A stretch of DNA of 63,048 bases, the filler included, from Bipalium vagum (Eukaryota), in NCBI GenBank assembly GCA_037834085.1. It is 3 parts of 3 records of this genome, joined end to end, with 100 filler letters (N's around TTAATTAATTAA, not from the genome) between each part and the next. Parts side by side here need not be neighbours in the genome. Positions count along the whole stretch, not along the records: positions 1 to 27,651 come from JBBMKC010083877.1; positions 27,752 to 46,839 come from JBBMKC010011027.1; positions 46,940 to 63,048 come from JBBMKC010126718.1. One strand, given 5' to 3'. The first letter of the stretch is position 1. Every line of letters starts with the position of its first letter. The position numbers and the translations under genes were made by a program. Below the pieces are notes generated by a model. That model ran no database searches. It worked only from the letters and a program-made list of their open reading frames with translations, and was not told the origin of the DNA. Positions 8,252 through 54,334 of the stretch are shown here, in pieces.

Positions 8252-8451
8252 CATATAAGCCAGTGCTTATAAGAATTTTTGAGAAAATCAAAACTTATCT
8301 TTTAATAATAATAATAGTAATATATGTACATTATTAACTCTGAAATTTAAGTTTTATTTATATTTATGTCAATAACAAGTGGCCGGCTGTTTTATAATCA
8401 CATTTTATTTTTTGTCGATATTCAAAAAAGTTTAAATTCAAATTGTGCCAG

Positions 8452-12745: not shown

Positions 12746-12853
12746 CGTACGCACAACCAAGCTGTATCATAATTATCGAAGTATGTGAATGGAGACATCT
12801 TTAGCCACAATCAAGAAGTTCATCATTAATTTAATAATGGTCAATCATTCATA

Positions 12854-22413: not shown

Positions 22414-22726
22414 TAGGGCCCCAAAAAAAAATGACCTCAAGATAATAAATATTAACCTAATATTTTGATCCATAAAATGACGGAAATTGACCTACAAAAA
22501 CTATTAAAATTGACTTTATTTATCAAGTATTTTTCAATTTTACATGGATCCTTATAAAAGTTAATCTTATTAAGATAATCCCATGTTTCAGTAATCGAGC
22601 AATGTCTATCTTCAAACTTTTGAATTAATAAAGATATTGAACTGTAGCATTCCTGAATCTCAATTAATGAATACATTAATTTCTTGCATTTTAGTGCCAT
22701 TGCTGCTTGCTTTACCAAAACACCAT
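22414..22726 (-). mobile_element. hAT (hAT19/CGGBP-like) 3' end fragment, inserted into the previous element and cut by the Polinton
   Basis: Starts TAGGGCCCCAAAAAAAAATGACC exactly where the 200-bp repeat similarity stops. ORF LIEIQECYSSISLLIQKFEDRHCSITETWDYLNKINFYKDPCKIEKYL resembles the C-terminal part of such transposases (from recall). Confidence 0.45.
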
Positions 22727-22859
22727 AGTAGTAGGGAAAACCATACTTTGAGGACAGGACCCAACTTTTATTTTTTTTTACTCTTTTTCGGTCGCAGAAG
22801 CTCCCTTAAAATAGAAAAAAAATATCTCCTTTCCTCGAAGTATGGCTTTCCCTACTACT
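22727..22859. repeat. Putative Polinton left terminus with internal 28-bp inverted repeat
   Basis: AGTAGTAGGGAAAACCATACTTTGAGGA (22727-22754) versus the reverse complement of 22832-22859, AGTAGTAGGGAAAGCCATACTTCGAGGA (26/28 identical). The 5'-AG(TAGT) start is typical of Polinton termini. It lies 144 nt upstream of the pPolB ATG. Confidence 0.75.
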
Positions 22860-23003
22860 TCTTTTTTTACTTTTTCAAATACTAAAAATACTAAAAAAGA
22901 AAAAAAATCAAAAAAGTAAATAAACTAAATAAAAAAAATAAAAAACAAATTACTAAAAAATTAAAAAATTTTTAACTGAAAAAATTAAATTTTTTCTTAA
23001 AAA

Positions 23004-26000
23004 ATGAATTCAACCTACTGTGACATTTGTGAAAAAGATCGTAGAACACTTGCAGGTTTAATTTCTCTTAAAAAATCTAAATCACATATAGATATTCTAA
23101 ATAATGTTCAACCACCAAATAAACAATGTAATTTTGTGGTGATATTTTAAGAGCAGTTGCTGCAAGAATTTCTCATGAAAAATATTGTGGGAATAATCCA
23201 AATAATTTAGATGTTCAAAATAATCAGCTCCAACAAATTTCTCAACAAAATTTAAATAATTATAATAATGAAAATAACATTACAGTTCAAGATAGATTTT
23301 ATAATTCTTCAAAAAACTATTTAATTTCCAAAGATGTTTTTGAAGGAAATGATCTAAGAAATTATTTAAGTGATTTTCTTCCTAAAATTAAAGAATCAAT
23401 GTTTTATCCTATCCAAGATGGAAGATTTTTTAAACCATTTAAAATTTCATTAAACTTAAATATTAAATTTTTTCATCCAACTGATTCTGAATATGTTACT
23501 TTAAAAACTTCATGTGCTGTTGGAACAATAATAACAATAAATAATATTAAATGAGAAACAGAAAATATTTTATAAAATTTAGAAGAGGAAATAGAAAACA
23601 CCTGGCAAAGATTAAAAGAAAGTTTGGATGGACAATCGATGATATAAAAATTTTAAGAGGAACAACATTTATTCCATTACCTTTTCAAACTCATTCAATA
23701 ATAAATATTTAAAACGAGGATAAGAAATGTTTTATTTGGAGTATAATTAGTTTTTTCATACATCATCAAATTCCTCATCATAAAGAAAAAGTAACATTGT
23801 ATAAGAAATATGAATATCAATTTAAATATATTGTAGAAGATATGCCAATGAAAATATGTAATATTAATAAATTTGAAAAAGAAAATGGATTAAGAATAAA
23901 TGTTTATATGATTGAATGTATTGATAAAAAAATTGAATGAAGAAAATCTTGGAGAGCATATCCATTACATATTTCTTCACATGATATTAATAATTATAAA
24001 ACAATATCTTTATTATTTTATGAAGATCATTATATTTTAATTAAAGATTTTAAAGCATGATTCAATGAAGAAATTGGATATAAACGTAATATAACTAACA
24101 ATAATGAAGAAATTTATATTTGAGAAATATGTTTATCAATAAATATTAATAAATCTGCTTATGAAAAAGATTATAATTTTTGTATTTTAAATAAACCAAC
24201 AAAATATATTTTTCTTGATCCAGGATCAAAAATATCTTTTACAAATTATAAATATAAAATATAAGTTCCTTTTGTAATTTATGCTGATATTGAATGTATT
24301 AATGAACCAATTAATGAAATAAAATTTAAAAGCAATTATCGAGAAATATTATTAAACGAACCAGGCTTTAATCCAAATGAAATAAATAATTATAATTACA
24401 TTATTATGTATATTAAAAATGTTAATAAAAATTTATATGAAAAAATATTTACAAACACGTTTATAAAATTTCAGCAAAAACCTTCATGTATTTTTTTAAA
24501 GTTTATTTCTTATTATCCAAATTTAATTGAAACTTCTAAAAAACTTTTCAAAGGAAAAAATTGTATAAAAGATTTTGTAAATGGCTTATAATTTTTCAAC
24601 CATTTTGTGAAAATATTTTAAAAATAAATATCCAATATAACTTAACAGAAGAAGAACAATAAGAATATAATAAAAAATAATATTTGTCATTTTTGTAAAG
24701 AAGAAATTGAATATGATCCAGAAGGTCTAAATTGTCAAGTAATTGATCATGATCATTATGGTAGAAGTTATAGAGGTCCTGCACATTATAATTATAATAT
24801 TCGAGCAAGTTTTTCAAAATCTATACCAATATTTTTTCATAATGGATCTGGTTATGATTTCTATTTAAAAATAAAAGAATTAGCAAATTAAATTAATTTA
24901 AATGCGAGTGATACTCTAGGAAGCAAAGCATCTGAAGAGACTTCAAATTTAAATTATGTATTTTATTTAATCCCAAAAACAGATGAAAAATATATTTGAT
25001 TGAATTATAAAAAAACATTTAAATTTGTAGATTCTTTAAGATTTCTTTTATGTTTTTTAGATTGGGCAGGAAAAGCATTAGATAAAAATGATAAAAAATA
25101 TTTAAAAGAATTTGCTGATAGGAATTTTAAGTTATTAGATAAAAAGGGAATTTATCCATATGAATATTTTACAGATTTTGAAAAATTTAATAGAACAGAA
25201 TTATTACCAAAAGAAGCATTTTATTCTATGTTAAATAAATCAAATATTTCTGATGAAGAATATGAAAGATATAAAACAGTTTATACAAAATTTTGTAAAA
25301 ATCATTGGGATTATACAATTTTATATCTTAAACAAGATGTGATGTTATTAACTGATATTTTTGAAAAATTTAGAAAACTATTTATTTTAGATCCCTGTCA
25401 TTTTGTCTCTACACATGGATTAAAATGGCAATTAGGATCCTTAAAAACTAAAATAGAATTAGATTTAATCTCTGATCAAAATATGTTTGAAAAATTTGAA
25501 AAAGGAATTAGAGGAAGAATTTCAACAATTCTAAGAACAAGATATATAAAAGCTCATAATAAATATACAGGAAAATCGAAGAATTATTTTGAATTACATA
25601 AATTAGAAAAAAATATTTAGAAACCTAAAACTCAAAAAAGAAATTAACAGAATTTTTTAAACCAAATTACTTATTTTATATTGATGCAAATAATCTTTAT
25701 GGAAATGCAATGTCTCAATCATTACCATATAAAGATTTTAAATATAAATATTTAGATTATAAAAATAAATCGACATTTACAGAAGAAGATTTTTCTTTAT
25801 TAATTGATCACTTTTTAAATCAATGTGAGATAAACCAAACAGAAGACGGAACAACATTAGGTTTTTATAGCAGAAGTTGATTTAGAATATAAAAATTATA
25901 AATTAAAAAAATATTGTAAATCATATCCTTTAGCTCCAATTTCAAGAATTGTTGAAGATGAAGAATTATCTGATTATCAAAAATATTTATTAGAAACAAA

Positions 26001-27009
26001 TAATCAACCTCATACAAAAGCTCCAAAATTAATTTTAGATATGAAACCAAAAAAGAATTATGTAGTCATTATAAAGTTTTAAAATTTTATTTGACATTTA
26101 TGAAGGTTACAAAAGTTCATCAAATAATATCTTATAAAAAAACTATGGTTGAAAGATACAAATTTAAGAAAAGAATCAACAACCGATTTTGAAAAAGATA
26201 ATTATAAATTAATGAATAATTCTTTCTTTGGAAAAACTATGGAAAACGTAAGAAAGAGAGTAAATGTAAGATTAGTTACACATGAAAAAGAAGCAGAGAA
26301 ACAAATAAGTAAACCAACATTTGTGAAAAGAGAAATATTTTCAGAAAATTTGATGGCAATTCATTAAAAAAATATCAAACAAAAATGGATAAACCAATTT
26401 ATTTAGGATTTTGTATTTTAGAATGATCTAAACTAATTATGTATGAATTTTATTATGTTGTTTTAAAAGTAAAATATAAAGATGATATTGAATTGATTTT
26501 TCAAGATACTGATAGTTTTGTAATGAATATAAAAACAAATGATCTTTATGAAGATTTTAATGATTTAAAAGATTGGATGGATTTTTCCGAATATAAAGAA
26601 AATGAATTTCCTACTAGTTTAAAATTAGAAAAAGATGATTATACTAAAAATAAAAAAGTATTAGGAAAGTTTACAGATGAAATAAAGGGTGAAATATTAA
26701 TAGAATTTGCAGCATTAAAATCAAAATCATATGGTTATAAAATGAAAAATGTTTATTCTAATAAGGAATCCGAAAAACTTAAAAATAAAGGAATTCAAAA
26801 ATGTGTTGTTAAAAATGAAATGAGGTTAGAAGATTTTAAAAATAAATTAATAAATCCAGTAATAACAGAAAAAGATTTTAGAATAAACAAATATAAAATC
26901 TGATAAACGTGATATATTTCTTTTACAACAAAATAAAAAAGCATTGGATCAGTTTGATGATAAGAGATTTTATTTAAATAATATTGAATCTACTTCATAT
27001 GGATATTAG
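23004..27009 (+). pseudogene. Polinton/Maverick protein-primed family B DNA polymerase (multiple stops and frameshifts)
   Basis: N-terminal zinc fingers (YCDICEK); NEDKKCFIWS; ExoI VPFVIYADIE; EndoVII-like DHDHYG..YRGPAH; ExoII FFHNGSGYD; FVDSLRF; KGIYPYEY; ExoIII YLKQDV; motif A YIDANNLYG; motif B KLMNNSFFGK; motif C QDTDS; LGKFTDE; KNKGI; ends FDDKRF..SYGY*. Confidence 0.95.
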
Positions 27010-27274
27010 AAAAACATTTTAAAAAATCTTCTGAATTTTAGGCAATAAAAACAAAAGTAAATCACTAATTAAATAATTAAAAAATAAAAATATTTCTTTA
27101 GTATCATCTCTCTCAAGATCTTTTACCAAACAAAATCAATTTCATAATTTAAATAGATGGGGGTATTCGTAATGGCCCAACCAAAACTAATGTGAAAGAT
27201 TAAATTCCACGGTATACTTTACATATACCTTTTAAAAATAAATTATAAATTAAAATTCCAGGGTATACACTACT

Positions 27275-27405
27275 TACCATTTTTAATTTTTAAATTAAAG
27301 TAATTGATGTGATAAAAAGTATACCTATTTTTAATTTTCAAATTAAAATAATTGATGCGACAAAAACAAAACTATACCTATTTTTAATTTTCAAATTAAA
27401 ATTAT
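27275..27405. repeat. Short tandem repeat (~47-54 bp unit, ~2.5 copies) downstream of pPolB
   Basis: TACC(T)ATTTTTAATTTT(C/T)AAATTAAA(A/G)TAATTGATG(T/C)GA repeated. It is flanked by two copies of ATCTCTCT(C/T)AAGATCTTTT (~27106 and ~27404). Confidence 0.7.
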
Positions 27406-27651
27406 CTCTCTTAAGATCTTTTTTAAAAAAAAATGAGAAAAAACAGTAAAAAAACGCAATAAAAAATGTTATAAAATTTAATAATTTTAACAATTATTTA
27501 AAACGGATAAGATAAAAGATTTTTAAGAATTTTCCCCCATTTTTGTTTTAGTTTCAAAATAAAACATTTTTCCTCCTTTAAGTTTTATTTCAATAAATTT
27601 CTCACTTAATAAAACACAATTCATAATTCCTTTAAAATCATTATCTTTTTC

Positions 27652-27751
27652 NNNNNNNNNNNNNNNNNNNNNNNNNNNNNNNNNNNNNNNNNNNNTTAAT
27701 TAATTAANNNNNNNNNNNNNNNNNNNNNNNNNNNNNNNNNNNNNNNNNNNN
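27652..27751. other. Artificial contig spacer
   Basis: 44 N + TTAATTAATTAA (stop codons in all six frames) + 44 N = 100 bp. Confidence 0.97.
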
Positions 27752-28081
27752 AGATTGAATTAAAAAGCACTGTAATGCTCTAGAATTTAAAAAATAAATT
27801 TCTTGATTTCTTATATTAAGTACATTTATTATGTAAAATAATTTAAATTACTTTTTAAAATAAACGAACACAGCAAAAAGGTGAGTATTTAAACTGAGTT
27901 TAAATTTTTATATTGTGCATAATTTAAACTTTTATTTAATTGTAAATTTAATTTTAATATTTATTTTAAAATAATTTTTATTTTAATTTGTAATGGCACA
28001 ATATAATTATTTTTAAAGAATGGAAAATTGGTTTAAGTTTTGTTTTTTTGAAAAGCATTAAAAAATATATGGTTCAAAAAT

Positions 28082-30500
28082 ATGACTGAATTTGTTGATA
28101 TTGCTGCTAACATGACGACCAACACCAGAGAATTGTTAGCCGAATTACTCAGGCCAGAATTATTTCGAAGATCAGATGATGTCGATACGTTTTTACACAA
28201 ATGTAAAGATTATTTCGACATGTTGGAATTACCTAAAAACGTTAGAGGTTTAGCCGTCATTAGATTGATGAAAAACAAACTTCGAAAGGATTATGAATTA
28301 ACTGATTCGAAGAACGAATGAGAAAAGCATTTTGGAAGGTAAAATCAAGGTGAAGGACCTTAAAGAGGAATTCAATTATAAGCGTGGAGAAGAAGACGTG
28401 GACGTTTATGTAAAGAAAATGTCGGAATTTGCTGACCGATTAATGGAATACACGTGGGACAAGGAAACGCTGAAAGTGAATTATTGCTACACTGTTGCAA
28501 TGATAAAGAAGTGTGGCAAAAATTCCAAAGGAAGGAAAAGAATTATTCAGAAGAAATTGTAGGTGAAATGAAGAGATTTAATGAAGGAAGATTATCTTAT
28601 AGAGATGCAAAATATAGAGGATCTACTGGATAGAATAGAAAGAGCGAAGTATTTTATAACGATTGACTTCAGTACCAGGTTGAATTGACAACGGATTCAC
28701 AGGAAAAACAGCTTTTTCAATAAAAGAAGAACAATTCAGCTTCAAAAGAATGCCTTTTGGTATAGCCGCTACTCATGGAACTTTTCAAGAGTTAATGACG
28801 AAGGTTTTAAGAAATTTTAAAAATTCGATGCTTTATTTAGATGATATTATGATTCACACAAAGGATTTATAACATCATTACACGTATTAAATAATGTGAT
28901 AAAGAGGATAAAAGAAGCAGGACTTAGAGTGAATCCAGAGAAATGCCATCTACTAAGAACAGAAGTCAAATTTCTAGGACATGTAATTGACAAACTAGGA
29001 ATCAAAACCGACCCAGCGAAAATTGAGGCAATTAGAACCTTCAAGAGGCCAAATTGCGTAAAACATTTTAAGAAGCTTTCTGGGAATTTGTAATTATTAT
29101 CGGAAATTTATTAATGGATATGCAAAAAAATCAAGAGTGTTAGAACAATTGCGTGGGAAGAACAATGAAAAATTAATATGGACCGAAGCATGCAATGTAG
29201 CCTTCCAAGAATTAGAAGAGTCACTAACAAAGACACTCCAAACATTAAAAGAACGTTTATATTAGACACTAACTCCAGTTTTGAAGCGATTGGAGCAGTG
29301 TTGTCACAAACAGACGATAATGGAAAAGAGGGAGTGATTGTGTACGGATCACATACAATGAACAGTCATGAAAAATAACTGCATCACAAGAAAAGAACTA
29401 TTAGCAATCTATTATATCAGAAGTATAGATATAGAGCTTAAATACAGAAAAAGAATTGAGCACACGAATACAGACATGTTATCGAGAAAAACTTGCGGTA
29501 CATGCTCTCAGTGTATGATGATTCACGAAGAGCCAAAGACAGAAAAAAGAAAGACCAGAGATATAAATACAGTAAACGAAGAGGCAGTATATAAATGGCA
29601 CAATAATGAAAATGAAATCGATCAGATTAGAGAAGATATTGAAAAGAGAACTACGTCTTATTTCCGCTTGGAAGATGGTCTGGTCAAAACGGTCGAAGAA
29701 AAAACCAAGAGCCAGATCTCTAACACATGCTTGGACCGAAAAAGTTATTAAGTATACAGCTGATTTGAACGATATGAAAAACCTGAGAGAGACGGCAACA
29801 GAAGTTATAAAACAATGCGAAATCTGTCAGAACCATAAAGTAGTCACAACAAAAACGAAATAAGATACGATAAAATTATCAGCAGATCAGTCATTTGAAA
29901 AGATATACATTGATATTTGTGGTCCGTTAAAAGAAACTTTTCGAAGGAAATGATACATACTAGTTATTAAAGATGTATGTACATTTCATTAACACCGATA
30001 ATGAAACAAGATGAGGAAACAATCATAAAAATAATAATGGAAAAATGGATCTATAAATATGGTGCACTAAAGTAAATCCATGTAGACTGTGTAAAGGTCT
30101 TTGAATTTACAGTTTTTAGGACACTGGTCACACAGAGTAACGCAAAACTCTGTTTTTCTAGTCCATATCATCATAACAACAACGGCATAATAGAACGGCA
30201 ATTCCGAACTATTGGTGACAACACGAGTACTACTATGGCTAAGAGAAAAAACAATGATTGGGAAAATTTGTTACCTGAAATTTAGTTTGTCTTAACACAT
30301 TTCAGAAAACGTTAAGATGCAGCCCAGCTGAACTCATATTTGCAAGAGAAATTTACAGAGAGGCTTGGGTCAGTAATAAAATATCAGAAGAATTGGAAAA
30401 AGAAAATGATCAAGATAGACCAAGAGAAGCAACAACAAAAAGAAAGCTCGACCTGGGCAACAAGTACTTGTGAAGGCCGAAGGTAGAACTAAGGATAAAG
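28082..30500 (+). mobile_element. Decayed, internally deleted Ty3/Gypsy retrotransposon (gag, RT, RNase H, integrase)
   Basis: FKRMPFG...YLDDI; GLRVNPEKC...VKFLGHVI..GIKTDPAKI; FILDT....IGAVLSQ; ITRKELLA; CEICQ; KIYIDICGP; SPYHH..NGIIERQFRT, in RT-RH-IN order. Many frameshifts. Confidence 0.9.
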
Positions 30501-30539
30501 AAATAAATAATAAATAATAAAGAAATAAATAATAAATAA

Positions 30540-30794
30540 ATTCTACATGGCTAACACTTTTGAGCATGAGTATAACAAAACATGGCGAATGTGTTCATTA
30601 TCAATCTGCATTTTGAAATTGTACCGATTATCAATATTTTTGAATCCATTAAAACAAAGCATAATTCTGAGATGTACAATGTTTCAGCTTTCGAAAGATA
30701 TATAAATTATATATTTCTGATTTGTTTAAGTGCCTCAAAATTAAGGCCAAAACGATTCATATAAAAAACGCACGAACTTTCCGGACAACCCAAT
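30540..30794 (-). mobile_element. Mariner 5' terminal fragment
   Basis: The right end reverse-complements to a mariner-type TIR, TATTGGGTTGTCCGGAAAGTTCGTGCG. Confidence 0.5.
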
Positions 30795-31249
30795 ACAATG
30801 TTGATTATAATTCATTGAATACTTCGATTTTTCCTTTAATACTACTACATAGTACTGTTTAGTTAGTGAATATTATTTAAGAAATAGAATAGTTTTGCTT
30901 ACTATCACAAACTTAACACAAAGACTCCAAAATAAATGTACCAAGGTTACGGTTTTATAAAATGTATTTGATATTACTATTGACAACTTTTACGGAAAAA
31001 CTTTAAAATCTATAGAATTAGATTTTTAGGATTTTAATTAAAGATTTTGATCGCGTGAATATTTGTGATCAACTGGACTATTCATTATTTAGACTCCATG
31101 AACAGCACTGTAATTCCTATAATCATCAATTGATTTATTAATATTTAGACCAAAAAGATAAGGTGGTTGTTAGTTCTCTAAAAGTAGATGTCAGTAATTC
31201 TATTTTTAAATTATTTTTCCTAATTTGTTCATCAAAGCGTGGTTGCTAT

Positions 31250-31620
31250 CCTCATTGTTTTTTGTTTAAGCTTTTTGATGATAGTGTCTGGATATTAATA
31301 ATAATTATATTTGAAAAATGAAAGCGTAGCCTAGGTTTTTTGGCAATTAATTATTTAACCTTTAGAGATCTGAGTTACCATATAATATATTACCATGTAA
31401 TATTGAAATTATTAAGAATTTCGTCAAGTATTTTATCAATATTGTGTTGTGGTTTGCCTAATGGAAATCCTAGATATAAATAAATATTATTTTTGTCAAA
31501 CTTTGGAATAATCTCATCATATAATTCTAAATCTAATCCGCTTTCTACTTTATTTGAGTAATATTCACACTTAGCTGCTCTGATTTTTAAATGAATTTTA
31601 TTTGTTAGTTCGATGATTAT
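31250..31620 (-). mobile_element. Non-LTR (R2/NeSL-like) reverse transcriptase remnant
   Basis: LKIRAAKCEY...IIPKFDKNNIYLYLGFPLG resembles RT subdomains 6-7 (GL.I...KC; YLG). Confidence 0.4.
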
Positions 31621-32335
31621 AGATATAGATTATCTATATTTAATGTATTTTGTCTGGAGCTGGCCTTAACGTAGGCAAGGATGATGAGTTCTGTGTTATT
31701 GACAGTCAGTGGGTTTTCTATAGAAGAGGTTGTTCGAAACAGTGGGTTTTTGTCTTAAACAAGTTCCAGCTTTCATAGGTTTTTTTGTACATTTATTCAT
31801 TTATATCATTCAGAAAGATTACAAAAGATAAGAAGAATTATTAGATCACTGAATAAATTAAGTCAGATTGTTCAAAATTACTGAAGGAAAGTGTTTACAA
31901 CATAAAACCAATCTCAATTGAGGATCTAAGTATAAAAAGTATTACTAATAAAAAATTATCCGCCATATTTCAAACAATTGATTTATTCGATACCTCGTCG
32001 AATTGAGACTGTAATATCCGCAAATGGCCTTTAAAACTACATATTAATTCTTTAAGTAATAACTGAAAAATTTCTTTATCTTTCATTAAAAATACAAAGA
32101 TAATTTTGAATCTAGTCATATTTTAGAATTAAAAAATAAAAATAAATTTTCATTTGATAAGTTTGAAAATAAAATTTTTGAAAGGAAATTGAATTTTATC
32201 AAAAAATAATTTGGTAAAGTTCTTGATAATCGATATTTAAATTAGTAATATTTTTATTATTTAATCAGAAAATAGTTTTGTTAAACAATTCTTTTAATAT
32301 AGTGACTCTAAACACGATTATTTCAAAAATCTTTA

Positions 32336-35300
32336 ATGAATATTGTTAATGAGTTGATATGGAATCCAAGATTTTGGCTCCCAGAAAATTATACTTGGGC
32401 TGATCTTAGGTCGAAAGATCCGAATCTTTATTATGGAGAACCAAAGGACTTATCATACTCCTTTTACACTGCAATTTTCATATTTTTTTTTCGTTATTTT
32501 GTTGAAAAGTAGACTTAATAGGAGTATTTTTTGAATAAAAACTGATAATAAAATTCAGGTGTATTTGGGAACCAGTAGGTTTACATTTTGGTCTTTCACA
32601 TAGAAGATATTGTAAAGCTGAACCCAACAAGAATCTGGAAAATGAATATAAATTAAAGAAAAGACCCAATAATTCACAGATTAAGGTAAAATTATCAAAT
32701 TTCGGTAGATTTTAGTCATCTTTTATTTTATCTCATTTCAATAAATCTATAACTTTTCAATATCAAGTATTTCTATTACAAAGTAGTCATTATTTATCAT
32801 TCATTATTGATCATTGATAATCAATTCCAATATTTATAAATTGATATTAAGATAATTTTTTAAACTATTTATCTCATCACTTATCATTTTTTACATTACT
32901 TTTCAATGTTTTTTTTTAATGAGAAGTGGATGAAAATCTTGATATGTTCGTCTTCTGATCGTTTCCTAATTTCCATTTTTCTTTACATTTAAGCAGAGCA
33001 TTAAAGCTACATTATCGATGTCATTATTTGATTTCAAAAGTGGGTCTAAAATGGAGAATTAAGATTAATTTTTCAAATTGACCACCAAAACGTTATTATT
33101 TATTAATAAATTATTTCATGATTTTATATGTAGATTTTAAGGAATTTGTTTGATTTTGTAATTAAATTAATTAAAAAAAGATTAATAATTTTATTTTAAG
33201 TTTTCTTCATTTTTATGATGCTACAAACACATTCACAGGGTAATCCTTTCTAGATTATTTTTAATATTAATATGCTCTAATGATTAATGACTGTTTGTTA
33301 TTGAAATTTTTTGCCATTTTATAATGAAAATGATTAAATTGATAATTTTTAATAGCTTAATACATTCATTAATTAATTGAAACGTGAGAAGAAAATATCA
33401 CAATGAGTTCACTCATTGATTATGTCTTTCAAAACTGAACTATTCTTAAAATACCAAAACGTCTAATTTTATTGAATTAAAATTATTTATAACATTTAAG
33501 TATTTGTTCGATGTCTTAAAATTAATCAGAAATAAATAATGTTTTGTTATATATTTTCCTTCCGGTCTACATTTATCACATGATTCTTCTGTTTTTTAAT
33601 ATCGACTGAAATAAAAATTAAAGAAAATTGAACTAATATTTAAAATTCATAAAACAATATTATTGATATTTACAAATAAAACAAAATATTTCTTGTTAAA
33701 TATTGTCTAACATCATTATTTCATCAATAATGGATGATTCTTTTTGTGAATATAAACAGATAGATACTATTTCTGTAATATAATAATTTACTTAGTATCA
33801 TTTATCAACAGCGGATATGAACCTTTTGCTTATTTCATTTCAAATAATCTTAGGTATTTATTGTTATCCACCTTATGATCAGTGAAAAGAGTTAAATTCC
33901 TTAAAAGGCTAAAAAATAAGAAATACGGAATTAATTTTCGTTAATATTTTAAGAAAATATTATTGGCGTGCGTTTTATTATTAAAAAAATCTAAATAATT
34001 CTTTTCAAAGAATACACAGCACTAAAAATTTGGCATTTATCGTTAAAATATGTTTAAAAACGAATTTTTTGTTAGATGACTCTTATGTAATCATTAAGAA
34101 AAAATACAATGAATAAATTATTATAAAATGTAAAAAATTAATCTCATCACAATTGTCGGCTCTAATATTTCGAATTTTATTTGTATAAACAAGGTCAAGT
34201 AGTGTGATGTATTATTATTTTATTGTATTATAGATTCTCCTAAATATATTGAACAATCATTATTTGTCTTTAATTTTTCAAATCGAAAAATAATGATTAC
34301 GATTTTTTACATTTTCAAACTTTCCATTTTTTCTAATCAATGAATTTTTTAGATTCCGTTTATGGCTTTAAAATTGTGCATTGAGTGTTGAAAGAATGTG
34401 CTCAATGTAATTGTTATTTTTTCGAGGTTTAATAAAATTATTCAGCAATTTTAACCAAAATTCTTTGAAAAATATTACGATATTTATTTTCTATTTTTGA
34501 AAATAATTTCTGCTTTTAATTGGTAAATTTACTGATTGGGATTTTAATGGATTTTTTTAATTTTTGATTGTTTTGTTTCATGTGTTTCGATTGATGTTTG
34601 AAATGATTTCAACTTATCAATTTTCTTTTCAATAGAAATTCTTAAGAATGACTTAGATATTTTCGTAGATTTTTCTGTTTCATCTTAATATGTCACAAAC
34701 AGTTTTCAAAAGCCACGATTTCAGATTATTATTATTATTATAGAATATAACATTGATGATGTACTTTAAACTTATCTTAAATTAGTATTCTTGTTCATAA
34801 TCATGAATTTGTAATACTGAATATTTTGTTTAAATGTGAAATCCGAAATCATTTAATATTTTTTACAGTCTGATACTTATTTTCTTCAGATTCATTTCAG
34901 AACAATACTTCATCATCTTCATAATCGAGATTTCACGTATCAGATTTTTTATAAGCCACTTTCAATTATAAAATAAGGTTCAAAATTTCCATCATATATA
35001 TGTACAGCTTTGAATCATTAACTCGTTGCTTTTGATCGATTACCAAAGTGCGTGGCATCCATTTTGTGACAAGATTTTTCATTTTAAATTCACCCTGAAT
35101 TATTTTCCAAACACTATTGACTGATATCTTTGCAAGGTTAGATAACTCGTTGATTTTGATTTTTCGATCATTCATAATTGCTTCATGAATTTCTTGAATG
35201 TTCTCTGGCACAACCACTTCGTTCAGCATAATCTGTGCTTATACGACCTCGTTTAAAGTCAGCGAACCATTTTTTTACCGTTGAATACGAAGGAGCAGAA

Positions 35301-44300: not shown

Positions 44301-44686
44301 GTAAAGTGATCTTGATGAAGAATCCTTAGAAAAATATAAAATAATAATAATTAATCAATAAGTTTACAGAGATGAAAATGAAAACAGTTTTATTTGCAAA
44401 GTCAGAAAATACATGACGTCATTAAATAATTTAAGTGGTGACTGTTAGAGCGAGAATTGGAGTTTTGTTTTTTTTCAGAAAACAAAATATACTAGATTTA
44501 TGGTAGTCCCAATATTTATTATTATTTTTTAATTTTAGGATTATTTATTCTGCATTTGCTTATGCCCCATTGCACTATCCAGGAGCAATAATGTGCCGGG
44601 TTCTGCTGCTGATCCTACAAATTCTACATATTATCTGGTTTGTCATGATCATCAGAATATTATTTCAGGCTTTTGATGATACTGGG
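32336..44686 (+). CDS. Ceramide synthase (CerS/LASS, homeodomain-like + TLC domain); exons 32336-32508, 32559-32685, 37733-37839, 39219-39276, 40859-40909, 42116-42208, 43379-43507, 43558-43664, 44539-44686; 3' end uncertain
   Basis: FWLPENYTWADL; RWFRRRRNQ...KFTESAWRFTYY; Lag1p motif RKDFWEMLIHHLVT...LHDVVDYIMEAAKM; SRLAIYP; LQILHIIW. All junctions are GT-AG and phase-consistent. The gene is absent from the ORF track because the exons are short. Confidence 0.92.
34900..35549 (-). mobile_element. Mariner 5' remnant in a CerS intron
   Basis: SAPSYSTVKKWFADFKRGR and KWMPRTL (WVPxxL motif). TIR-like TACTAGGTCGTTCGAAAAGTCCC on the minus strand. Confidence 0.8.
38600..38810 (-). mobile_element. 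Merlin/ISXO2-like transposase C-terminal remnant
   Basis: YVDPIS...TTNRIESIWTKLK*AKKARYGT matches the ISXO2-type FVDP..HTNxIExxW motif. Confidence 0.55.
39480..40060 (+). mobile_element. Mariner transposase remnant
   Basis: HLKAIGKVKKMNK*VPHDL, IITCDE and LIHDNARS motifs, with frameshifts. Confidence 0.8.
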
Positions 44687-46499
44687 GTAATAAGTTGTTT
44701 TGTAAAAAATTGAAAATTAAAGCATTATACTAATAAATAGGTTGTAACACAATTTTCTTGATTTTGAGTAATATATTTATAAATAATAAAACATTTTACT
44801 TATAAATAATAATTTTAAAAAATCAATCAAAAATGAATTACCACACTGGAACATCCCACATATTTTCTTGATTTTATTTCTTTTCCCGAAAATTTAATCT
44901 GTGTTAAAAGGAACTCGTTTTGAGTCTTTAGAAGCTGTTAAAAAGAAAAAAGAAAAGTTATTAAAACATTTGTCAAAAAATTGACATCAACACGCTTTCG
45001 ACAAGTGGAGAATAAAAATGCTTCGATGTCTGTCGGCCAAAGGAGAATATTTTGAAGTAGATAAATTATAAATGTTGTAAATATACTCATGACCAAGAAA
45101 ATAGTACACTTTTATTATGAAATCTGAAGAATTTCAAAATAATATTTTTGAGGATTCATATAGATATTACGCTGTGGTATTTTATTATATACATCACTTT
45201 TTATTCACTTGTTGCTGTAAATAATGGTACAATTATCAGAATTTCAAAAAGGCTTTCTATGTGGATCGAAATTGATGGCTGACCGGCATGTGGAATGACT
45301 TGAAAGTTGAATGTGCTATTTTCGTATTTCTGGTACCAATACTTTGGAGTAGTCCAAACCAAAATGTTTATCGAACAAATTTATTTGATCTAGATTAAAA
45401 TAAAATAGCAAAGCTAGCTGAAATGTTGCTTTTTTATTAAACTTGGCACTGCATTTCAAAGCTGTCAAATTTTAATAAAATAAGAAGATATAAAAGAAAC
45501 TTATCTGTATTTTTGTAGATCAAAAAACGATTTTTAAAATAAGTGTACTTGGTAGTAAACAGAGATGATATGATACAACAAAACCATAAAATAATAAAAT
45601 CACAACAAATTATGTTGCAACCTAATATAATAATTTTTTCAATTCCATTTTAAAAACTTCCGATTTTTCTTAATTAATTAAGCAAAAGTAATGCACAAAA
45701 GTATTATATATTAAGGCATAATTAAAAGTCAAAGAAATAGTTGAATAAATCTTATCAGTTAAGCCTATATTTATTGGCAATATTGGGTAAAATATTTTTG
45801 GAAAAATCAATATCAGACTTGAGAATTATCAAAAGCACTTGCTTGAATTAAGTAAATAAGTGTTGCTACCAGTCGTCTGGTTCTGATTTTGTCAGCAAAA
45901 TACGATTTTATGAGCGCTGGTTGTGGTGCCTATACTTCTGATGGAGTGATAGGCAGTTTTTGTTCATTGTAACTTAAAAGAACAATACGCCAATTGAAAT
46001 AGTTAAAAAGTTTTGTGCATATTTGTGGGTGGTTGAATTTAATTTAATTGGTCAAACAGATTTTTTGTAACAAAATTAAAATTTATGATTTAAATCTTAT
46101 ACTAATTTTCAAGATGATCCAAATTGATAATAAATGTACTAGTTTTATCTACGTGTAACCTTAGTAATTTCAATATCACCTTTTGACCTCTGATATAAAT
46201 TTTAATTATTATTATTATTATATTAATTCTTTCAACGGTATAACTATTTGTTAATGGGATGTAGGAAAGTCAAAGCTGCACGGTTGAGTACGCGTATTAC
46301 TCAACTAAACTATACTAGAATATACGTAGCTAAAGCTCAAGTATTGAGCACAAGTACACTTAATATTTATAACTCATCTAAGGTTCAAATTAAATTTACC
46401 AATATTTTTTAAGTGTATTTTTTGTTAAATATTTCAATTTTTCAGCTACAAACCCGAATGGTGCGAGTTATGTAATCATATAATGTAAAAAGAAAATTA

Positions 46500-46790
46500 T
46501 ACACTGTTTTCACCTCTATTTTGAGATTGTAAAGTTTAATTTGACAAAATTATCGGCTGTACAGCAAAATTTTATTAAAGAGTGGATTGATGAAGACTGT
46601 TCGATCTCTTTAACAAAAAATGCTGATAAATGTTTGGAAGAATTCAATGTGACGTTTCAAAGACTATAATCAACAATATTATATCAGATTTTAATTATAC
46701 CTTGAAACGAGTGCATAATATTCCAGCAAAAGGAAATGATGCACCCAATATACAGTTGCCGCTAAAAGTTTAGCATATTTTATTGAAAGG
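46500..46790 (+). mobile_element. IS630/Tc1-type transposase N-terminal remnant
   Basis: EWIDEDCSISL...KCLEEFNVT.SKTII...DFNYTLKRVHNIP is a typical HTH-linker region of DDE_3 transposases. Confidence 0.55.
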
Positions 46791-46839
46791 CAAAAAATAA
46801 GATATTATTAATATATTTCTATTCAATTTTTTCATTTTT

Positions 46840-46939
46840 NNNNNNNNNNNNNNNNNNNNNNNNNNNNNNNNNNNNNNNNNNNNTTAATTAATTAANNNNN
46901 NNNNNNNNNNNNNNNNNNNNNNNNNNNNNNNNNNNNNNN
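46840..46939. other. Artificial contig spacer
   Basis: 44 N + TTAATTAATTAA + 44 N, identical to the first spacer. Confidence 0.97.
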
Positions 46940-47188
46940 AATCACTAATACAATATTTAATGACAAATTAAAATGTTCGCTATCACAAATAAATAAAATC
47001 AGCTTTAAATGTTTGAAGAAAAACTTCCCAATAGCTCCTCATCTTTTCTTCTTCTTAGTTGATGATTCCCACAAAAACATTACTATTCTGAAAAATCGAT
47101 TGATAACTTGGAGAGCTATCTTGATTCATTTTTTGTAAACTTTTCAAATTAGAACAAATTAATGCAAATTAAAATAAATTTTGATTGT

Positions 47189-48400
47189 TTAAAAACTAGT
47201 TTTCTGTAATTCGTTTTCATAAAACCTTCCAATTATTTCTTTTCTATTTTTATCCATAATTCCATATACAACTGGAGTTTTATTTATTTATTATAAAAAT
47301 TTCATCTATCCATTTTGCAATATATCCTTTTTCAAATTTATGTTTATATTTAAAAATTCTATCTTTATCTCCGATATGGAATTTAGTTTTAGATTTTAAA
47401 ATTTCATTACTTTCAATAGTTTCACTCTCTTCTTTTATAACTTTTAATTTTTCTGGATTAGTCGTCGGCTTAGCCAACTTTGTTGGACTTTCGCTTAACC
47501 GCTTCCAGTGGTCATTCCAATTGAGCTATGAATTTTATTGTTGTAAAAATTAATTAAGTTTGGTAATAAATGAATCCATTTTCAATTTCCTTGTTCTGTA
47601 AATTTTTTAGAGTTCTATTAAATCTTTCTATTACTTCTCCTTTGCCTTCATTTTCAGTTGAGTAAATTTCTATTTCGTTATCATCAGAAAAATCTTCAAA
47701 AGTTTTATTGTAAAATTCTGTTCCTTTATCCACCCAAAGTTTTTCTGGAACTCTATAAGAATTTTCAAATATTTTATCAAAAGCATCTGTAATTGATTGT
47801 CCTGTTTTATTTTTTAAAAGAACAGCAAAAGCAAAGCGAGTATATAAATAAATAACTGTTAGAATTATTTTATAATCTTTTTCTCCTGGAACAAATGTAA
47901 GGTCTGTAGACCAAATATCATCTTTATTATTAACTTTAACTTTTAGAAAATTTTTAGTTTTTCTAAATTCTTTATGAAGTTTTTTTGCTAATTGCTTACT
48001 TTTCTCAGGAGGTAAAATTTTAGAATTTTCAAATATTTTTTCAGTTGCTAATTTTTTTGATTCTCTTGATAAACCTAAACCTAAAGCTATCTTTCCTTTC
48101 ATTATTAATTTTACTATTGCTCTTTCAAGTTTTTCTCTTGGTTTTTGAATATGGATTTTGAATATTTTTTCATTTCTACATTTTCAACATGTCTATCTTT
48201 TAAATCTGTTGACATATTTTACATCATGTTTCATTACTGCTTGATTAACTCGATTTATTGGAATTGAATCAGGTTTTGGAATTGAGAGAATTGATAAATC
48301 TTGATTGTCTTCAAAATTTTCTAATATTTCATTATAGTTTTCTAAACGTTTATCAACATGAGTTCTAGGTCCTGTAAAATTTGATCGAGGATCATATAAT
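47189..48400 (-). pseudogene. Polinton retroviral-like (rve) integrase preceded by a parvovirus-type PLA2 domain
   Basis: NFTGPRTHVDKRL...PINRVNQAVMKHDVKY...REKLERAIVKLIMKGKIALGLG runs into LAKKLHK...DIWSTDL...LWVDKGTEF...IERFNRTLK (33 residues between the second D and E). The C-terminus is KFHIGD..RI...FEKGY..KW..E...GRFYENELQ. Frameshifted. Confidence 0.9.
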
Positions 48401-48419
48401 TTTTTCCTTTCCCGTTTTC

Positions 48420-50450
48420 GTTTTTGTTCTTAACTCACACGCTAAGTAGGGTGGTGAGTTAAATTGTTTTTCTTAATCGAAGACTTCTGAGCATAAGAGC
48501 GAGAGTGCTTTTTAACCCCAAAATAAAAAGTAACCCTAAAATAAATAACTCTATTGAAATCCATCAAGGACGATTCTCCGCATTTGTAAAGTTCCCTCTT
48601 TATTTTTGATTTAATTTTGAAAATTTTGAGTTCGATTTAGTCATTTGTTTTCGATTGTTTAAACGTTTTAACAATAATAAAAGTAACCTTCGCTGTTAAG
48701 TCCTACTAACCATTATGTTAAGTTCCACCTCTCATAAATTAGGATCTTAACATAAAGATTAATTAAATATGATGAAATAATTATTTGATTTGACTAATTT
48801 ACTTTGATATTCAATTATGGGATTACTAATTATTGGTTTTCTATTTATTTATTATTAATTTAATTGTGAAAAATTATTAATATAATAAATAAAATTATTA
48901 TTGAAATAAAATATGACGAAATTACTATATTTATTAAAAAATTGTTATAAAACAGCTTTATAACTTCAAATTCAAAAAGCCGAAAAATTGAGCTAACTTG
49001 TTGCTTTTGGTTTATTGTATTTTTAAAATTGTTTTTATAATAACTTTTGTTTTTATAATTCATAAATATCTTTTCTAAATTCTGGCACCAGTGTTAATTT
49101 TTTCTATTTCTACAATCCTGGGTCTGCAAACATTAAATTTAAAATACTACTTAAATTATCTGTTAATATTCTAAAAGTTGGGTGGATGTTAAAATTGGAG
49201 CTTATTATGCTTAGGTCTTAACGTATGAAGGTTGCTTACTTTGGTGTTCGATAAAAATTATTTAAATTAACTGAGAAAACGAGTCGATTTTAATACTTAT
49301 TTTGTTCAAAATAAATTTTAAATTACTAATGTGTGATATCGGTTCTGACTGATTAAAATTGATTTTATTAATTGTAATTATTATTTAAGAAAAATCCTCT
49401 CACTCTTAGGCTCAGAGGTCCTCGAATAAGAAGAAAAATATACTTCACCACCCAACTTAGTGTGTGAAGTATGAACAGTAAAAAGAAAAAGTGATAAGAA
49501 ATAGAAGTTTAAAAAATTAGATAATCCTCAGGTCCTGACCTGAGTATTTATTTATTTATTTAGGACAAATTGTGTCTTGTCTAACAAGACACGCCTGTTT
49601 AATAAAAGGAACTGAATATCAAAGCGATTATATTATTTTTTTATTAAAAATCGACACCAGTCTTGAGAACCTTTGGTTCCAAGCTAGTTTTTATTATTTA
49701 AGGTTATTATTGAAATTATAGCTACTTTATAATAATAAGAACTTTGTTACAGTGATGTAAAAAGTTATAAATATATATTTTTATAAAATTGTAGCAAAAT
49801 ACTTATATAATTATGAAATCAAATGTTACGTTAGGAATACAAACACTAAGATTATAAAGGTAAATTTTGTTACTTAAATATCACCAAGCAATACTAGTAA
49901 AAATGAAGTATTACTATTCAAAACATTTTATTTTTAAATAATAAAACTTTGTTACATAAATGTAACAAGTTACAATATAAATAAATTTAATTTTTCAAAA
50001 TATAAGCATATAATTATTCTTCCGCTTGTTGTAGTCTATTGTCACTTTCTTTGGCTATCGGTCTTCTTCTAGTTGGCTTACGATGTTCTTCTTTTCTTTT
50101 TCCTTTTGTAGTGGTTTTGTTATTCTTCAACCGGTTGGTCCTGATGCTTTATATAATAGAACTGCGTAGTAACGATTTGATGTAGGCTCAGGTATGATTA
50201 TCGGCCCTTGATTCAAAACTGATGTTATGGTCTGCTGTAGGTTGGAATGACTGTAAGCTTTGCTTTTGCTGTTTTTTGTAGTGGCTTGACGTCACAATCT
50301 GTAGGTTTAGATGTTCTGTCTTGCTTGAACTGTACTTGTCCGATCTATAATATTTTTTGTTTCTGTTTCTTTTGTAATTTTTGTTTTCTTTTATACTGTT
50401 CTTTTTACCTTCTTTTCTATAATCAATAACTTTTTCCCCCTAATATAATT
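48420..50450. mobile_element. LTR-retroelement debris inserted in the Polinton: two related LTR-like segments in opposite orientation plus a probable Gypsy 3' coding remnant
   Basis: 48436-48505 CACACGCTAAGTAGGGTGGTGAG...GACTTCTGAGCATAAGAGCGAGAG matches the reverse complement of ~49397-49465. Both segments end AA(G)(T/C)AACCTTC..GTTAAG.CCTA...TTAACA. Confidence 0.5.
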
Positions 50451-52839
50451 CTGCTATCTTTCTTTTTTCTATTTTTACCATTTTTCTTATTTTCTAATAT
50501 AAAAATTCTTACCTATTTTCTATTATTAGTAAATTGATGTTACATTATTATAAATTTTCATAAAAATATAAATAAATACAATCACCAATAATGCTAATAA
50601 TAATTCATACATGTTATTCCACAAGATATTATTATATTATACATTATCTTATTTATTATGATATTTCATTTTCTTTTTATTTATTATTTATTATTGCTTA
50701 ATTATCGTTTTTTTGTTATTTATTATTTTGTACAAATCAGTCAAAAGCGATTTTACAATACATATATTTTTAAATTGGGATTATATTATAGAAAATCACC
50801 GAAAAATACCAAGGTACCGCAGGAGCCAATGAAGAGTGATGACATCCCTCCAAAATTGGTAATTGACAATGGAAATATTGAACATACAGAAATATTGAAT
50901 TTTACATTTAATTTAATTTTGTGCATGAAAAAGCCTTGTTATGCTTACTTTCAAAAAATAATATTTAAATTATAAATTTGTTTTTACTTAAAATAAATAA
51001 ATAAAATAATATTTTCATAAATAAAATTTTAATATAATCATAAAATTTTCAATTAATAGAGTAATATGTGAGTTTTTACTATTTAAAGAAAGTTCTTATA
51101 TTATAGAAATTACTAAATATATCAACCCACATATTAATATTCACTCATATTAATGTATTTATAGAATTTTCTTATTTTTCAGTTAATTTAATAATTAGAT
51201 TATTCATCTTAATATTTTTATTAATTTTGTGGATTAAATTTTAATTAACTTCAACCCACAATTTATATTATTATTATTATATTTGTGTATATTAATTAAA
51301 AAGGAATTTATAATTTAAATATTATTTTTTATAAAATATAAAATAACACATAGCAAAAATAAGTTTTTGGAACAGATTTAATAAATTAAAGTTAAATATA
51401 GTATAATGATAAAATCTTATTCTTATTATAATTCTGAAATAAAATTGAAAACTATTTGTGAACAAAATAATTCTACTAACAAACATGATTTTCAATTTAA
51501 TGCAAAAAATATAAAAATTTATGAAATCATTATTTTTAACAGATTTTTAGAAATAAATGAAATAAAAGAAAATTAATTTTTTATGAAAAATTTTATTATA
51601 TTTTGTATGAAGTAAACCTTCAAAATTAATTTTTAAAAAAATGGAAATTGAAAAAATTGAAAAATTAACTTATCTAATCCATTAATTGATCAATTGGATA
51701 AAATAAAAATAGAAAATTTCATTTTGAGAAAAAGTTGTAGAAGATTTATTAATTTATTATAAAAAGTTAAAAATGAATGTACTTCTATTGATTCATACTT
51801 AAAATTTGGATGTATTTTTATTGGAGGTATTTTAGGAATTGGAACTGCTATTATGACAACTGGAACTAGTTTATTAATTTTTGTTTCTGTTACAACATAG
51901 AGAAATTTGTGAATCAATATAATTTTCAATCAATAAACTTAATGTTTTTAATTAAAAACATTAGAAGATAAAATATTATTTAATAAAGAAATTGAACAAG
52001 CTAAAATAATAATTGTAGAATGTAAAAAGAATGTTAAAAATATAAAAGAAAGATAAGCGAACTTCGTTCTTGGAAGCAAAGCTTCCTTTTTAAAAAAATA
52101 AATAAAGAATCTAAAAATGTGTTAAAAAATGAAATTAAAAAAGAGTATAGAGAAAAGTTGCGAAGCATTACTTTTAAAGACAAAGTCTAGAAAAAATATA
52201 AAAATACTTTTTTTAAAAGCTTTAAGTTTTAAGAACTTCGTATTTTTCAAAAAAGATGAGTAAATTGTATAATAACAAATATTATGAGGGTTACACCCTT
52301 ATGAAGTAAAATTTCATGGAATTAAGCCAAGTAATATATTTATTAGAAACTTTTCCTATCTTAAAATATATAGAAGCTACTTGCTTACAAGATACTGATT
52401 ATTATTTAGAAACAGAAAATTATGAGTTTCCTTGGGAAAATCAGAAGCAACACTTTTAGTGTTAAGATCTTCGCTCGCATATTTATTTGTTGTATTTTTA
52501 TTATGAAAAATACAAACTAAGTTAACAGAAACAATATTTTTAAATGCACACCTTTGGTGTCTATTATGTTTTTTAGAAAAAAAGAGTTCTCAAAACCTTA
52601 AGTTTTAAATGGATGCGAATGAAAATTTTAATGATATTTTAAAAAAAATTAAACAAATAAAAAAATAATAACTAAAATTAAATTTGAAAATAGTCACTTA
52701 AATCAATGGAAAGAAGAAATAGGATTTTACAAAATTAATCAATTTATCATAAGTCAGTTAATGATAAAATAAGTGGAATAAAACCTAAAGAAAATAGTAA
52801 TGATGAAGCAAGCGAAACTCTTAAAACCAAAGCTTTATG

Positions 52840-53201
52840 TGATAAAGCAAATGAAATTCAACCATCTGATAAACTTGACAAATGTCTTAAAAAAATATAA
52901 CTATATTTGATGATGTATTAAATGAAAAAAATCGACATATAATGGAAATGTATTTTACTAGAAGACATAATAAATGTTCAGTAATATATTTATCACAATC
53001 TTTAAAGATGTATTAGGATGTATAAGAAATAATAAAAATGTTTTAATTTTATTTAACATTTCTTATTCAGATAAATCTCAAATTTATTTTAAATTGCTAG
53101 CAACTTTCATGGAAAAAGATGAGTTTCATTATTTGTATAATTTTCATATGAGAGAAAACTACAAATATCTTTTTATAAATTTAGAAGATGAAGAAATATA
53201 A
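52840..53201 (+). pseudogene. Polinton A32/FtsK-like genome-packaging ATPase (C-terminal part; Walker A not seen)
   Basis: ITIFDDVLNE (Walker B)...YFTR-RHNKCSVIYLSQS...CIRNNKNVLILF...YKYLFIN. Confidence 0.8.
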
Positions 53202-53262
53202 CCTTCAGTTTTTTGAATAATTTTTGTAATTTTTTATTTTTTTTCAAATTTTCTTTTTAAAA

Positions 53263-54334
53263 TTGAGTGTTTTAAATTTAGATAAGAGTTATTATCATCA
53301 AAATTTAAAAAATAAGAAGAGTGATTTTTTAGAAATTAAAAATGGAAATTTAACTTGTACTTTATTGCAAACAGCAAATGATTTAAATCTTTCAGAAGCA
53401 TATATAGTTTTTGAAAAAGAAATAACTGGTATAAATGCAAATGAAGATATAACTTAAGAAAATAACCTTTTTCCTTATTTATTTGATAATGCAACTTAGG
53501 ATCAACAGAAGTAGAACAAACTCAGTATTTAAGAATTACTAATTCTATAAAAAAAATTGTAATAAAAATCTTGATAAAAATAAATGCAGAAAAGTTTGGA
53601 TGGGTACCAGATAAAGCGACCACTGGTCGATAATATAGGATATAAAACTAGAAAAATAATTATATGAAAATAAAAAGTTCACTGGAATGTTTCCTTTAAA
53701 ATTAATGTTTGAATTTTTACAATGTTATAATAGAGTGATTTATAATATGCACGGAGAATTAAATTTTATAAGAATAAGAATTGAAAAAGAAATATTTTTT
53801 GGAACTGGTAATTCAGAAATTAAATTGAATAACATGATTTTATTCATTTCAGAATTAATTTTAGATCTTTCATCAGAATTCTCTTATAAGTAGAATAGAT
53901 AATGGAAAAAATATAAATGTTAATTTTTATCTCGGTGTTGTGAAAAAAAGAAATTTAACAGATGGTGGTACACAAACATTGCAATTATATAATATACTTA
54001 ATAAACCTATTTATTTATTTATTGCTTTTAGAAATAATGGTTTTGACTTAATAGTTTACTTATTTAAGTTAAAATAAAATCATTATGAGTTCAAGTGAAT
54101 AATTCATATTATCCTTTGAATTCTATAAAATTTGAGAAAGGCAAAAATCATTTATCTTATTTCAATTTTATAAAAGGTTGTGAATATTTCAATAAGGATC
54201 CTCGACTATCTTTATTAGAATTTCAAAATTTATATTCTATATTTTGTTTTGATTTACAAGATCAACCTGAAAATTTATTTATAAGTGACGCAGTTGTAAC
54301 TATTCATATCTATGATGAGGCTAATCAGACCTGA
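53263..54334 (+). pseudogene. Polinton double-jelly-roll major capsid protein
   Basis: LSEAYIVFE; NNLFPYLFDN; FPLKLMFEFLQCYNRVIYN; KPIYLFIAF; VQVNNSYYP; EFQNLYSIFCFDLQDQPE. Motif order and spacing match Polinton/adintovirus MCPs (from recall), and the gene directly follows the ATPase. Confidence 0.78.

Follow-up and report, generated by a model that had tools for sequence, protein, structure and literature searches.

The 63,048-nucleotide window analyzed here, from the Bipalium vagum assembly GCA_037834085.1, contains two blocks of Polinton genes, and we think it probable (roughly 85%) that both belong to one integrated, decayed Polinton that was split at its major capsid gene. The window is made of three pieces, contig 1 (1-27651), contig 2 (27752-46839), and contig 3 (46940-63048). 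At both joints lies the same 100-nt linker (N44-TTAATTAATTAA-N44), called spacer 1 and spacer 2 in what follows, and the blocks lie in the first and the last contig. One block carries a terminus and the gene for a protein-primed DNA polymerase B (pPolB); the other carries an rve integrase fused to a phospholipase A2 (PLA2) domain, an A32-like packaging ATPase, and the N-terminal part of the capsid gene. In Polintons, linear DNA is inserted by the rve integrase and copied by the protein-primed pPolB, which starts at the termini; double-jelly-roll capsids are filled by the A32 ATPase. All four of these genes are dead in the window. The original prediction for this DNA had also assigned both blocks to one endogenous Polinton, a view supported here mainly by a capsid gene cut at adjacent codons. 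The two spacers, the pPolB gene, the PLA2-integrase (its gene end 249 bp past spacer 2, where about 250 bp had been given), the ATPase, and the capsid gene were all found as described there (Table 1).

The divided capsid gene

Searches by tblastn with capsid homologs gave matches in two places, at 53266-54325(+) in contig 3 and at 27648-27541(-) in contig 1. Residues 337 to 373 of the homolog map to 54200-54310, and the last ~37 residues match only at 27651-27541(-). The two pieces meet at 54310 and 27651 as adjacent codons, with neither gap nor overlap, and the stop that ends the tail coincides with the end of the homologs. In an ungapped scan of all six-frame positions with the tails of three homologs (residues 374-410 of P0242, 380-416 of P0243, and 400-432 of P0244), rank 1 fell exactly at 27651(-) for all three, out of 125,876, 125,876, and 125,900 positions, respectively. 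Best and next scores were 82 versus 40 for P0242, 89 versus 28 for P0243, and 27 versus 24 for the distant (32%) P0244, while the best tail score for a gene continuing past the break, in 54305-55500, was only 18. With the cut in the capsid gene falling between 54310 and 27651, the two blocks very likely come from one integrated copy. The blocks had been said to share no gene; the capsid tail at 27651-27523(-) contradicts this. The native junction appears to be 54310 to 27651 reversed, not pPolB beside integrase. By PF21738 and its homologs, the capsid is of the double-jelly-roll type; a model of P0242, of low confidence (predicted local distance difference test score of 58), matches mavirus and Sputnik capsids (E ~1e-10, template modeling score of 0.3) and other double-jelly-roll capsids.

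The decay of the four genes is also uniform, as had been proposed. Relative to the best homolog, breaks (stops plus frameshifts) number 26 in 4,021 nt of pPolB, 8 in 1,196 nt of the integrase, 9 in 1,153 nt of the capsid, and 2 in 299 nt of the ATPase, a pooled density of 6.7 per kb that is homogeneous over the four genes (chi2 0.24, p 0.97). GC content is 21-25% in all four, compared to 33-46% in host genes. The comparison set included 62 related loci (L001-L062), Polinton contigs binned in bacterial or archaeal metagenome-assembled genomes, where they most likely represent eukaryotic host or viral DNA. In three of them (L004, L028, and L049) the same pPolB class occurs with a PF21738 capsid, an A32 ATPase, and PLA2 next to the integrase.

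Table 1. Positions of the element's parts and of associated features along the window
Feature	Position	Strand	Remarks
Major capsid pseudogene, N-terminal part (homolog residues 1-373)	53260-54310	+	PF21738; P0242 46% identity, E 1.8e-46; ends within contig 3
Capsid C-terminal piece (homolog residue 374 to end)	27523-27651	-	Begins at the final base of contig 1; terminates in a stop
pPolB pseudogene	23004-27009	+	Endonuclease-VII-bearing class; no PF03175
PLA2-rve integrase fusion pseudogene	47189-48390	-	PF00665, E 3e-12; gene end 249 bp from spacer 2
A32-like packaging ATPase pseudogene	~52700-53210	+	Profile positions 49-217 of 229 matched
Polinton terminus	22727-22859		AGTAGTAGGG end plus inner inverted copy; one 133-nt hairpin; CACCAT outside
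Synthetic 100-nt linker 1 (spacer 1)	27652-27751		Stops in six frames; one flank of the capsid break
Linker 2 (spacer 2)	46840-46939		Identical to linker 1; no terminus similarity on either side
Second pPolB remnant, outside this element	~20460-20980	-	82 of 120 homologs match the 20500 bin
Short AAA-loop hairpin motif in pPolB	24904-24938	+	Look-alikes at 52056-52085, 52797-52831 (by eye), and 49661-49683(-)
53-bp tandem repeat, 2.6 copies	27275-27402		Intergenic; pPolB and capsid converge on it with their 3' ends
Decayed small ORF, hydrophobic Gly-rich segment	51640-52060	+	Read from the sequence
111-bp inverted duplication, 79%	48403-48513 and 49390-49501		At the start of the PLA2-integrase gene

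Native order and the origin of the break

With the capsid pieces rejoined, the native order would be the missing end, PLA2-integrase(-), small open reading frames (ORFs), ATPase(+), capsid(+), pPolB(-), and the hairpin terminus at 22727. A single inversion of 27652-54310 would turn this layout into the order of the window. Contig 2 would then be the host flank of the missing end, and the other end of the element, with its terminus and possibly the protease and minor capsid genes, would lie beyond spacer 2. Contig 2 carries a Gypsy remnant and a TLC/CerS exon; when it was searched by tblastn with 120 pPolB, 120 integrase, and 3 capsid homologs and with 1805 ORFs of related loci, only Gypsy was matched, as expected from the original prediction that it held no Polinton gene. 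The accompanying idea that contig 2 is an interposed stray is probably wrong, one inversion of 27652-54310 being enough to explain all three contigs. Since the order in the window would itself be the product of one inversion, a single element would still be tenable if long reads bore that order out.

The probable inversion-type break may be real or may have arisen in amplification or assembly. We would give something near an even chance to an inversion that is real, spans at least about 26.7 kb (27652-54310), and is either heterozygous or fixed, so that one haplotype or more would have the contigs in the order shown. One event would account for the order and orientation of the three contigs, with the two capsid halves lying two contigs apart, and a heterozygous breakpoint would explain why contig 1 ends at a codon boundary with zero overlap; if the inversion is fixed, however, only chance would have made a contig end at its breakpoint, and there is no repeat pair at the breakpoints. 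It is also possible, though we hold this tentatively, that the genome has the element in one uninterrupted stretch and that contig 3 is chimeric at 54310/54311, through a mis-join or an inverted amplification chimera. Whole-genome amplification tends to yield short-range inverted chimeras. The change from capsid to unrelated DNA is abrupt and is accompanied by no homology, and contig 1 ends exactly there, but we saw no sign that the sample had been amplified and no microhomology at the junction.

Neither repeats nor homology were found at either breakpoint flank. Insertion of Gypsy into the capsid gene was considered and is unsupported: the similarity of 54311-55500 to the Gypsy region, the start of contig 2, or contig 1 was not clearly above that of shuffles, with 1 of 16 tests marginal (28.2 versus a null maximum of 27.6 from 6 shuffles). 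The 1.1 kb between the capsid break and the 3' region of the host gene UBE2O (54311-55400) has no Pfam match and no repeat partner.

A different join, of 27651 to 46940, was that of the original prediction. Contig 2 would be foreign. As a native arrangement this join fails; as the adjacency of today, it would require that 46940-54310 alone had been inverted and that the DNA from 54311 onward were the rest of the element. It has in its favor that pPolB commonly converges on the integrase in relatives and that a degenerate terminus-like match ends at 54521, yet we regard this arrangement as improbable. The pPolB gene does not run up to spacer 1, as had been stated, but stops at 27009, and it is followed by ~510 bp of intergenic DNA and then by the capsid tail, which the join would strand, in reverse, between pPolB and the integrase. 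The two ends do not overlap; indeed, exact overlap between contig ends was zero in all five pairings. The match ending at 54521 (19/27 identities, one gap) was rejected as a terminus, ranking 9th to 10th of ~1,280 windows at a score of 10.8 versus 40-49 for the true copies and having no target duplication, and no Polinton gene was found within 54311-56700.

The remaining alternative is that two separate insertions, of the same or of different families, lie close by chance in a concatenated file. A second pPolB remnant, not mentioned in the original prediction, lies outside the element, on the minus strand (Table 1). Over 50 amino acids it is 30% identical to the main copy, and it has 7 breaks in 439 nt (12-16 breaks per kb), a density differing from that of the element genes (P 0.03). 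On either side of it is a 240-bp direct repeat (19849-20072 and 22175-22415; 82%). With two differing pPolBs, there is more than one Polinton family in this genome, and the complementarity of the blocks alone therefore proves little. The linkers, too, are of a concatenation type. Presumably the Companion pipeline uses exactly this linker. In the accessible part of one report, linkers with the same core provide stops in six frames upon contig concatenation (10.1101/2023.02.08.527609), and in that of another, Companion strings input that is unordered together as a bin sequence (PMC4987884). A linker of this type is used for unordered concatenation and by itself says nothing about adjacency. Nor does the 30-nt hairpin repeat that the blocks were said to share help: only an 18-nt core is common to them (24915-24932 and 52068-52085, 16/18 identical), and while this is the top match between the blocks, scores as high or higher came from 4 of 40 shuffles of local sequence and from 2 of 6 segments of host DNA, so that we rejected it as proof of one element. 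Even so, two insertions seem to us very unlikely, in that a second contig ending at the very codon of the break would be improbable (about 1 in 1,000 over a 12-kb element, as a rough estimate), copies this decayed would probably be too diverged to collapse in assembly, and decay is uniform across the genes.

Several points nevertheless weigh against a single element divided at the capsid gene. Convergence of capsid and pPolB was seen in 0 of the 27 mapped loci (of 62), and pPolB instead converges on the integrase in L003, L015, L026, and others. Given the linker type, which serves unordered concatenation, the contig order need not carry meaning, and the evidence for both junctions, as for a real inversion, comes from assembled sequence. 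No repeat or homology at the breakpoints accounts for the break. The tail scan has its own weaknesses: in controls, 2 of 10 capsid tiles were placed outside the capsid gene, owing to frameshifts; the margin for P0244 is narrow; and P0242 and P0243 are 75% alike. The distant capsid of L049 gave no alignment to the tail, and the tail alone has no Pfam match. Finally, a second terminus and a target duplication were not found in the window.

Ends, genes, and surroundings of the element

The element ends at 22727 in an AGTAGT-type motif, which we take to be a Polinton end and which was also seen in L039. An inverted copy of AGTAGTAGGG ends at 22859, and the 133 nt fold with a minimum free energy of -30.9 kcal/mol (z -8.8, 0/200 shuffles). 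The right terminal inverted repeat (TIR) was to be recognized, according to the original prediction, by its end motif followed by CACCAT. That motif, CCCTACTACT, occurs at 22850-22859, in the inner hairpin arm, at a distance of 133 bp from the terminus. The letters after it are TCTTTT instead of CACCAT; the inner copy is therefore not the right TIR. A substitution-only search (<=7/27 mismatches) found only the copies at 22727 and 22859 in the window. We also rejected the idea that the 133-bp inverted pair is a mini-element in its own right; it has no target duplication and occupies the same position in L039.

There, a 129-nt segment with AGTAGT...ACTACT ends (L039:5614-5742; z -10.3) lies 150 nt before the pPolB ATG, compared to 145 nt in the window. 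Long palindromes directly upstream of pPolB were also found in L026:9743-9901 and L060:2056-2215. Across loci, strong inverted repeats precede pPolB in 3 of 33 testable cases versus 2 of 21 downstream controls, which is no clear enrichment, and they were found in 0 of 102 window tiles, a tile boundary having split the terminus itself. With enrichment this weak, conservation of the terminus layout rests mostly on L039. We met no description of hairpin or panhandle Polinton termini in the openly readable literature, subscription papers being outside that scope. One can envision that a terminal fold-back could rebuild a duplex origin.

The main pPolB matches 612 proteins at E<=1e-10 (best 2.3e-95) and aligns over its full length to P0002 (residues 3-1287 of 1290), with 16 stops and 10 frameshifts. 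Among the 120 pPolB homologs listed, PF02945 is present in ~79 and PF03175 in 3 (hand counts); PF03175 had 0 matches in the window frames.

The best match of the integrase has an E value of 6.4e-59 (47% over 90%), with ~60 N-terminal residues of the homolog unmatched. A PLA2 profile scored 25.9 bits on this gene, versus 4.3 for the decoy, and PLA2 and integrase share one reading frame in the window. Both domains occur in one protein in 58 of the 120 listed integrase matches (P0122-P0241) by profile and in 60 of 120 by Pfam domains (hand count). In L004, L028, and L049, the ORFs for PLA2 and for the integrase overlap in different frames (L004:7507-7570, L028:7510-7573, and L049:8095-8147), and the conserved start of the integrase lies upstream of its first ATG. 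The overlap in L004 and L028, which are near-identical, is a -1 overlap on a slippery-looking A-AAA-AAC run, a candidate programmed frameshift; the offset in L049 is +1. No description of a PLA2-integrase fusion was met in the openly readable literature, including the accessible parts of PMC8502044 and PMC3671162; subscription papers again fall outside this scope.

The ATPase was matched by tblastn with that of L004, a PF04665 member (E 3.5e-8), and by a profile built on 16 ORFs that the related loci supplied, at 35.5 bits versus 4.8 for the best decoy; the profile did not detect the N-terminal Walker A region. Between the PLA2-integrase and the ATPase lie 3.9 kb with small decayed ORFs. Six frames of 48400-52300 gave no match in Pfam or in the related loci, and atlas searches with the ATPase piece and the ORF at position 50.6 kb were uninformative (scores <0.9). 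The hydrophobic ORF at 51640-52060 may resemble a small Polinton membrane protein. A perfect 24-nt palindrome (51940-51963) lies within it.

The original prediction had not identified a cysteine protease, a minor capsid, or a right TIR, and our profiles, motifs, and terminus searches did not find them either. No protease was detected in the window with a 12-sequence profile and three motifs, one end of the element being absent, and three candidate minor capsid profiles (F17, F52, and F54, of probable penton identity) scored at or barely above decoys. Profiles derived from the related loci are of low sensitivity; the one for the capsid gave the true capsid no more than 13.5 bits. Conceivably, the genes for protease and minor capsid sit on the far side of spacer 2, or they were lost.

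Around the element, the window contains genes of an AT-rich animal host: RPS6 (2485-3250), which is closest to animal ribosome entries in PDB, a C2H2 zinc finger (5663-7012), a HECT E3 ligase (8450-11800), and UBE2O (56763-62735). Introns in these genes, as read from the sequence, are as short as ~45 nt. A 108-nt fragment of eukaryotic large-subunit rRNA lies at 1735-1842(-). Stretches at 12260-12830, 38190-38960, 39600-40090, and 57800-58600 are presumably remnants of mariner/Tc1-like transposases, picked out by eye from their motifs. Just outside the terminus, 21250-22200 is a decayed, coding-looking stretch of higher GC; its minus strand had no Pfam match, and the related loci gave none.

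Relatives and meaning

As defined in the accessible part of one report, Polintons have TIRs of 100-1500 bp at both ends, a target site duplication of 5-8 bp, and a length of 13-25 kb, and they encode pPolB, an rve integrase, a packaging ATPase, a double-jelly-roll capsid, an adenovirus-like protease, and a minor capsid (10.1101/2023.08.22.554363). The window element shares with Polintons/Mavericks the first four of these genes and an AGTAGT-type terminus. It differs in that our searches did not find a protease, a minor capsid, a second TIR, or a target duplication, the genes are dead, and the capsid gene is split, by a probable inversion-type break. What is seen amounts to 4,925 plus 7,371 bp, or 12,296 bp, with one end missing. 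The original prediction spoke of a near-complete element; four of the six core genes are indeed present, but with 12.3 kb and only one terminus, the term was an overstatement.

In the accessible parts of PMC8502044, the PolB of Beta adintoviruses is divergent from pfam03175, clusters with a Terrapene PolB, and has an N-terminal OTU domain found by structure prediction; their accessory genes include GasderminX and cupiennin-like genes, and PLA2X is a separate gene typical of Alpha virion modules. The window PolB, also outside pfam03175, fits the Beta description, the comparison being one of descriptions only. The native layout of the window element would likewise have integrase and PolB at opposite ends, going by the labels of Fig. 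S2, panel B, in that source. The element differs from Beta adintoviruses in its fusion of PLA2 to the integrase, and adenain was not found. No OTU domain was matched by Pfam in the window pieces or in P0002 and P0003, and no GasderminX or cupiennin-like gene was matched by Pfam or the related loci in 48400-52300. As for Alpha adintoviruses, the window has no pfam03175-type PolB, and its PLA2 is not stand-alone but in frame with the integrase.

Among the related loci, L004, L028, and L049 resemble the window in their pPolB class, PF21738 capsid, A32 ATPase, and PLA2 immediately upstream of the integrase, and L039 resembles it in the hairpin ~150 nt before pPolB. L004 and L028 differ in having kept the protease, and in all three of the former loci PLA2 and integrase occupy separate overlapping frames; the gene order of all four is unlike that of the window element. 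The closest named integrase match is that of the Trichoplax MELD virus (DAC81743.1, P0172; 45% over 58% of the query), but that integrase has no PLA2 fusion, and the virus has a superfamily 1 helicase in place of PolB.

Degraded endogenous Polintons are common in animals, according to the accessible parts of PMC8502044, and the window element is in itself therefore ordinary: it is the fossil remnant of a group already known, and its integrase is fused with a phospholipase domain. From the split capsid gene, an inversion or a mis-join can be placed at a single codon, and contigs without a set order in the file become linked. The PLA2-integrase fusion, possibly achieved by frameshift in relatives, would bring the integrase into the virion and suggests how a Polinton integrase might enter it, and the self-complementary terminus bears on how the replication origin is regenerated. 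We imagine, as a rather doubtful extension, that a Polinton lineage outside pfam03175 might make PLA2 and integrase as one polypeptide (fused in the window and in roughly half of the integrase relatives, or by -1 frameshift in L004/L028), the integrase being packaged as in retroviral Gag-Pol, and might also use fold-back termini of ~130 nt to rebuild a duplex origin without pairing of both ends.

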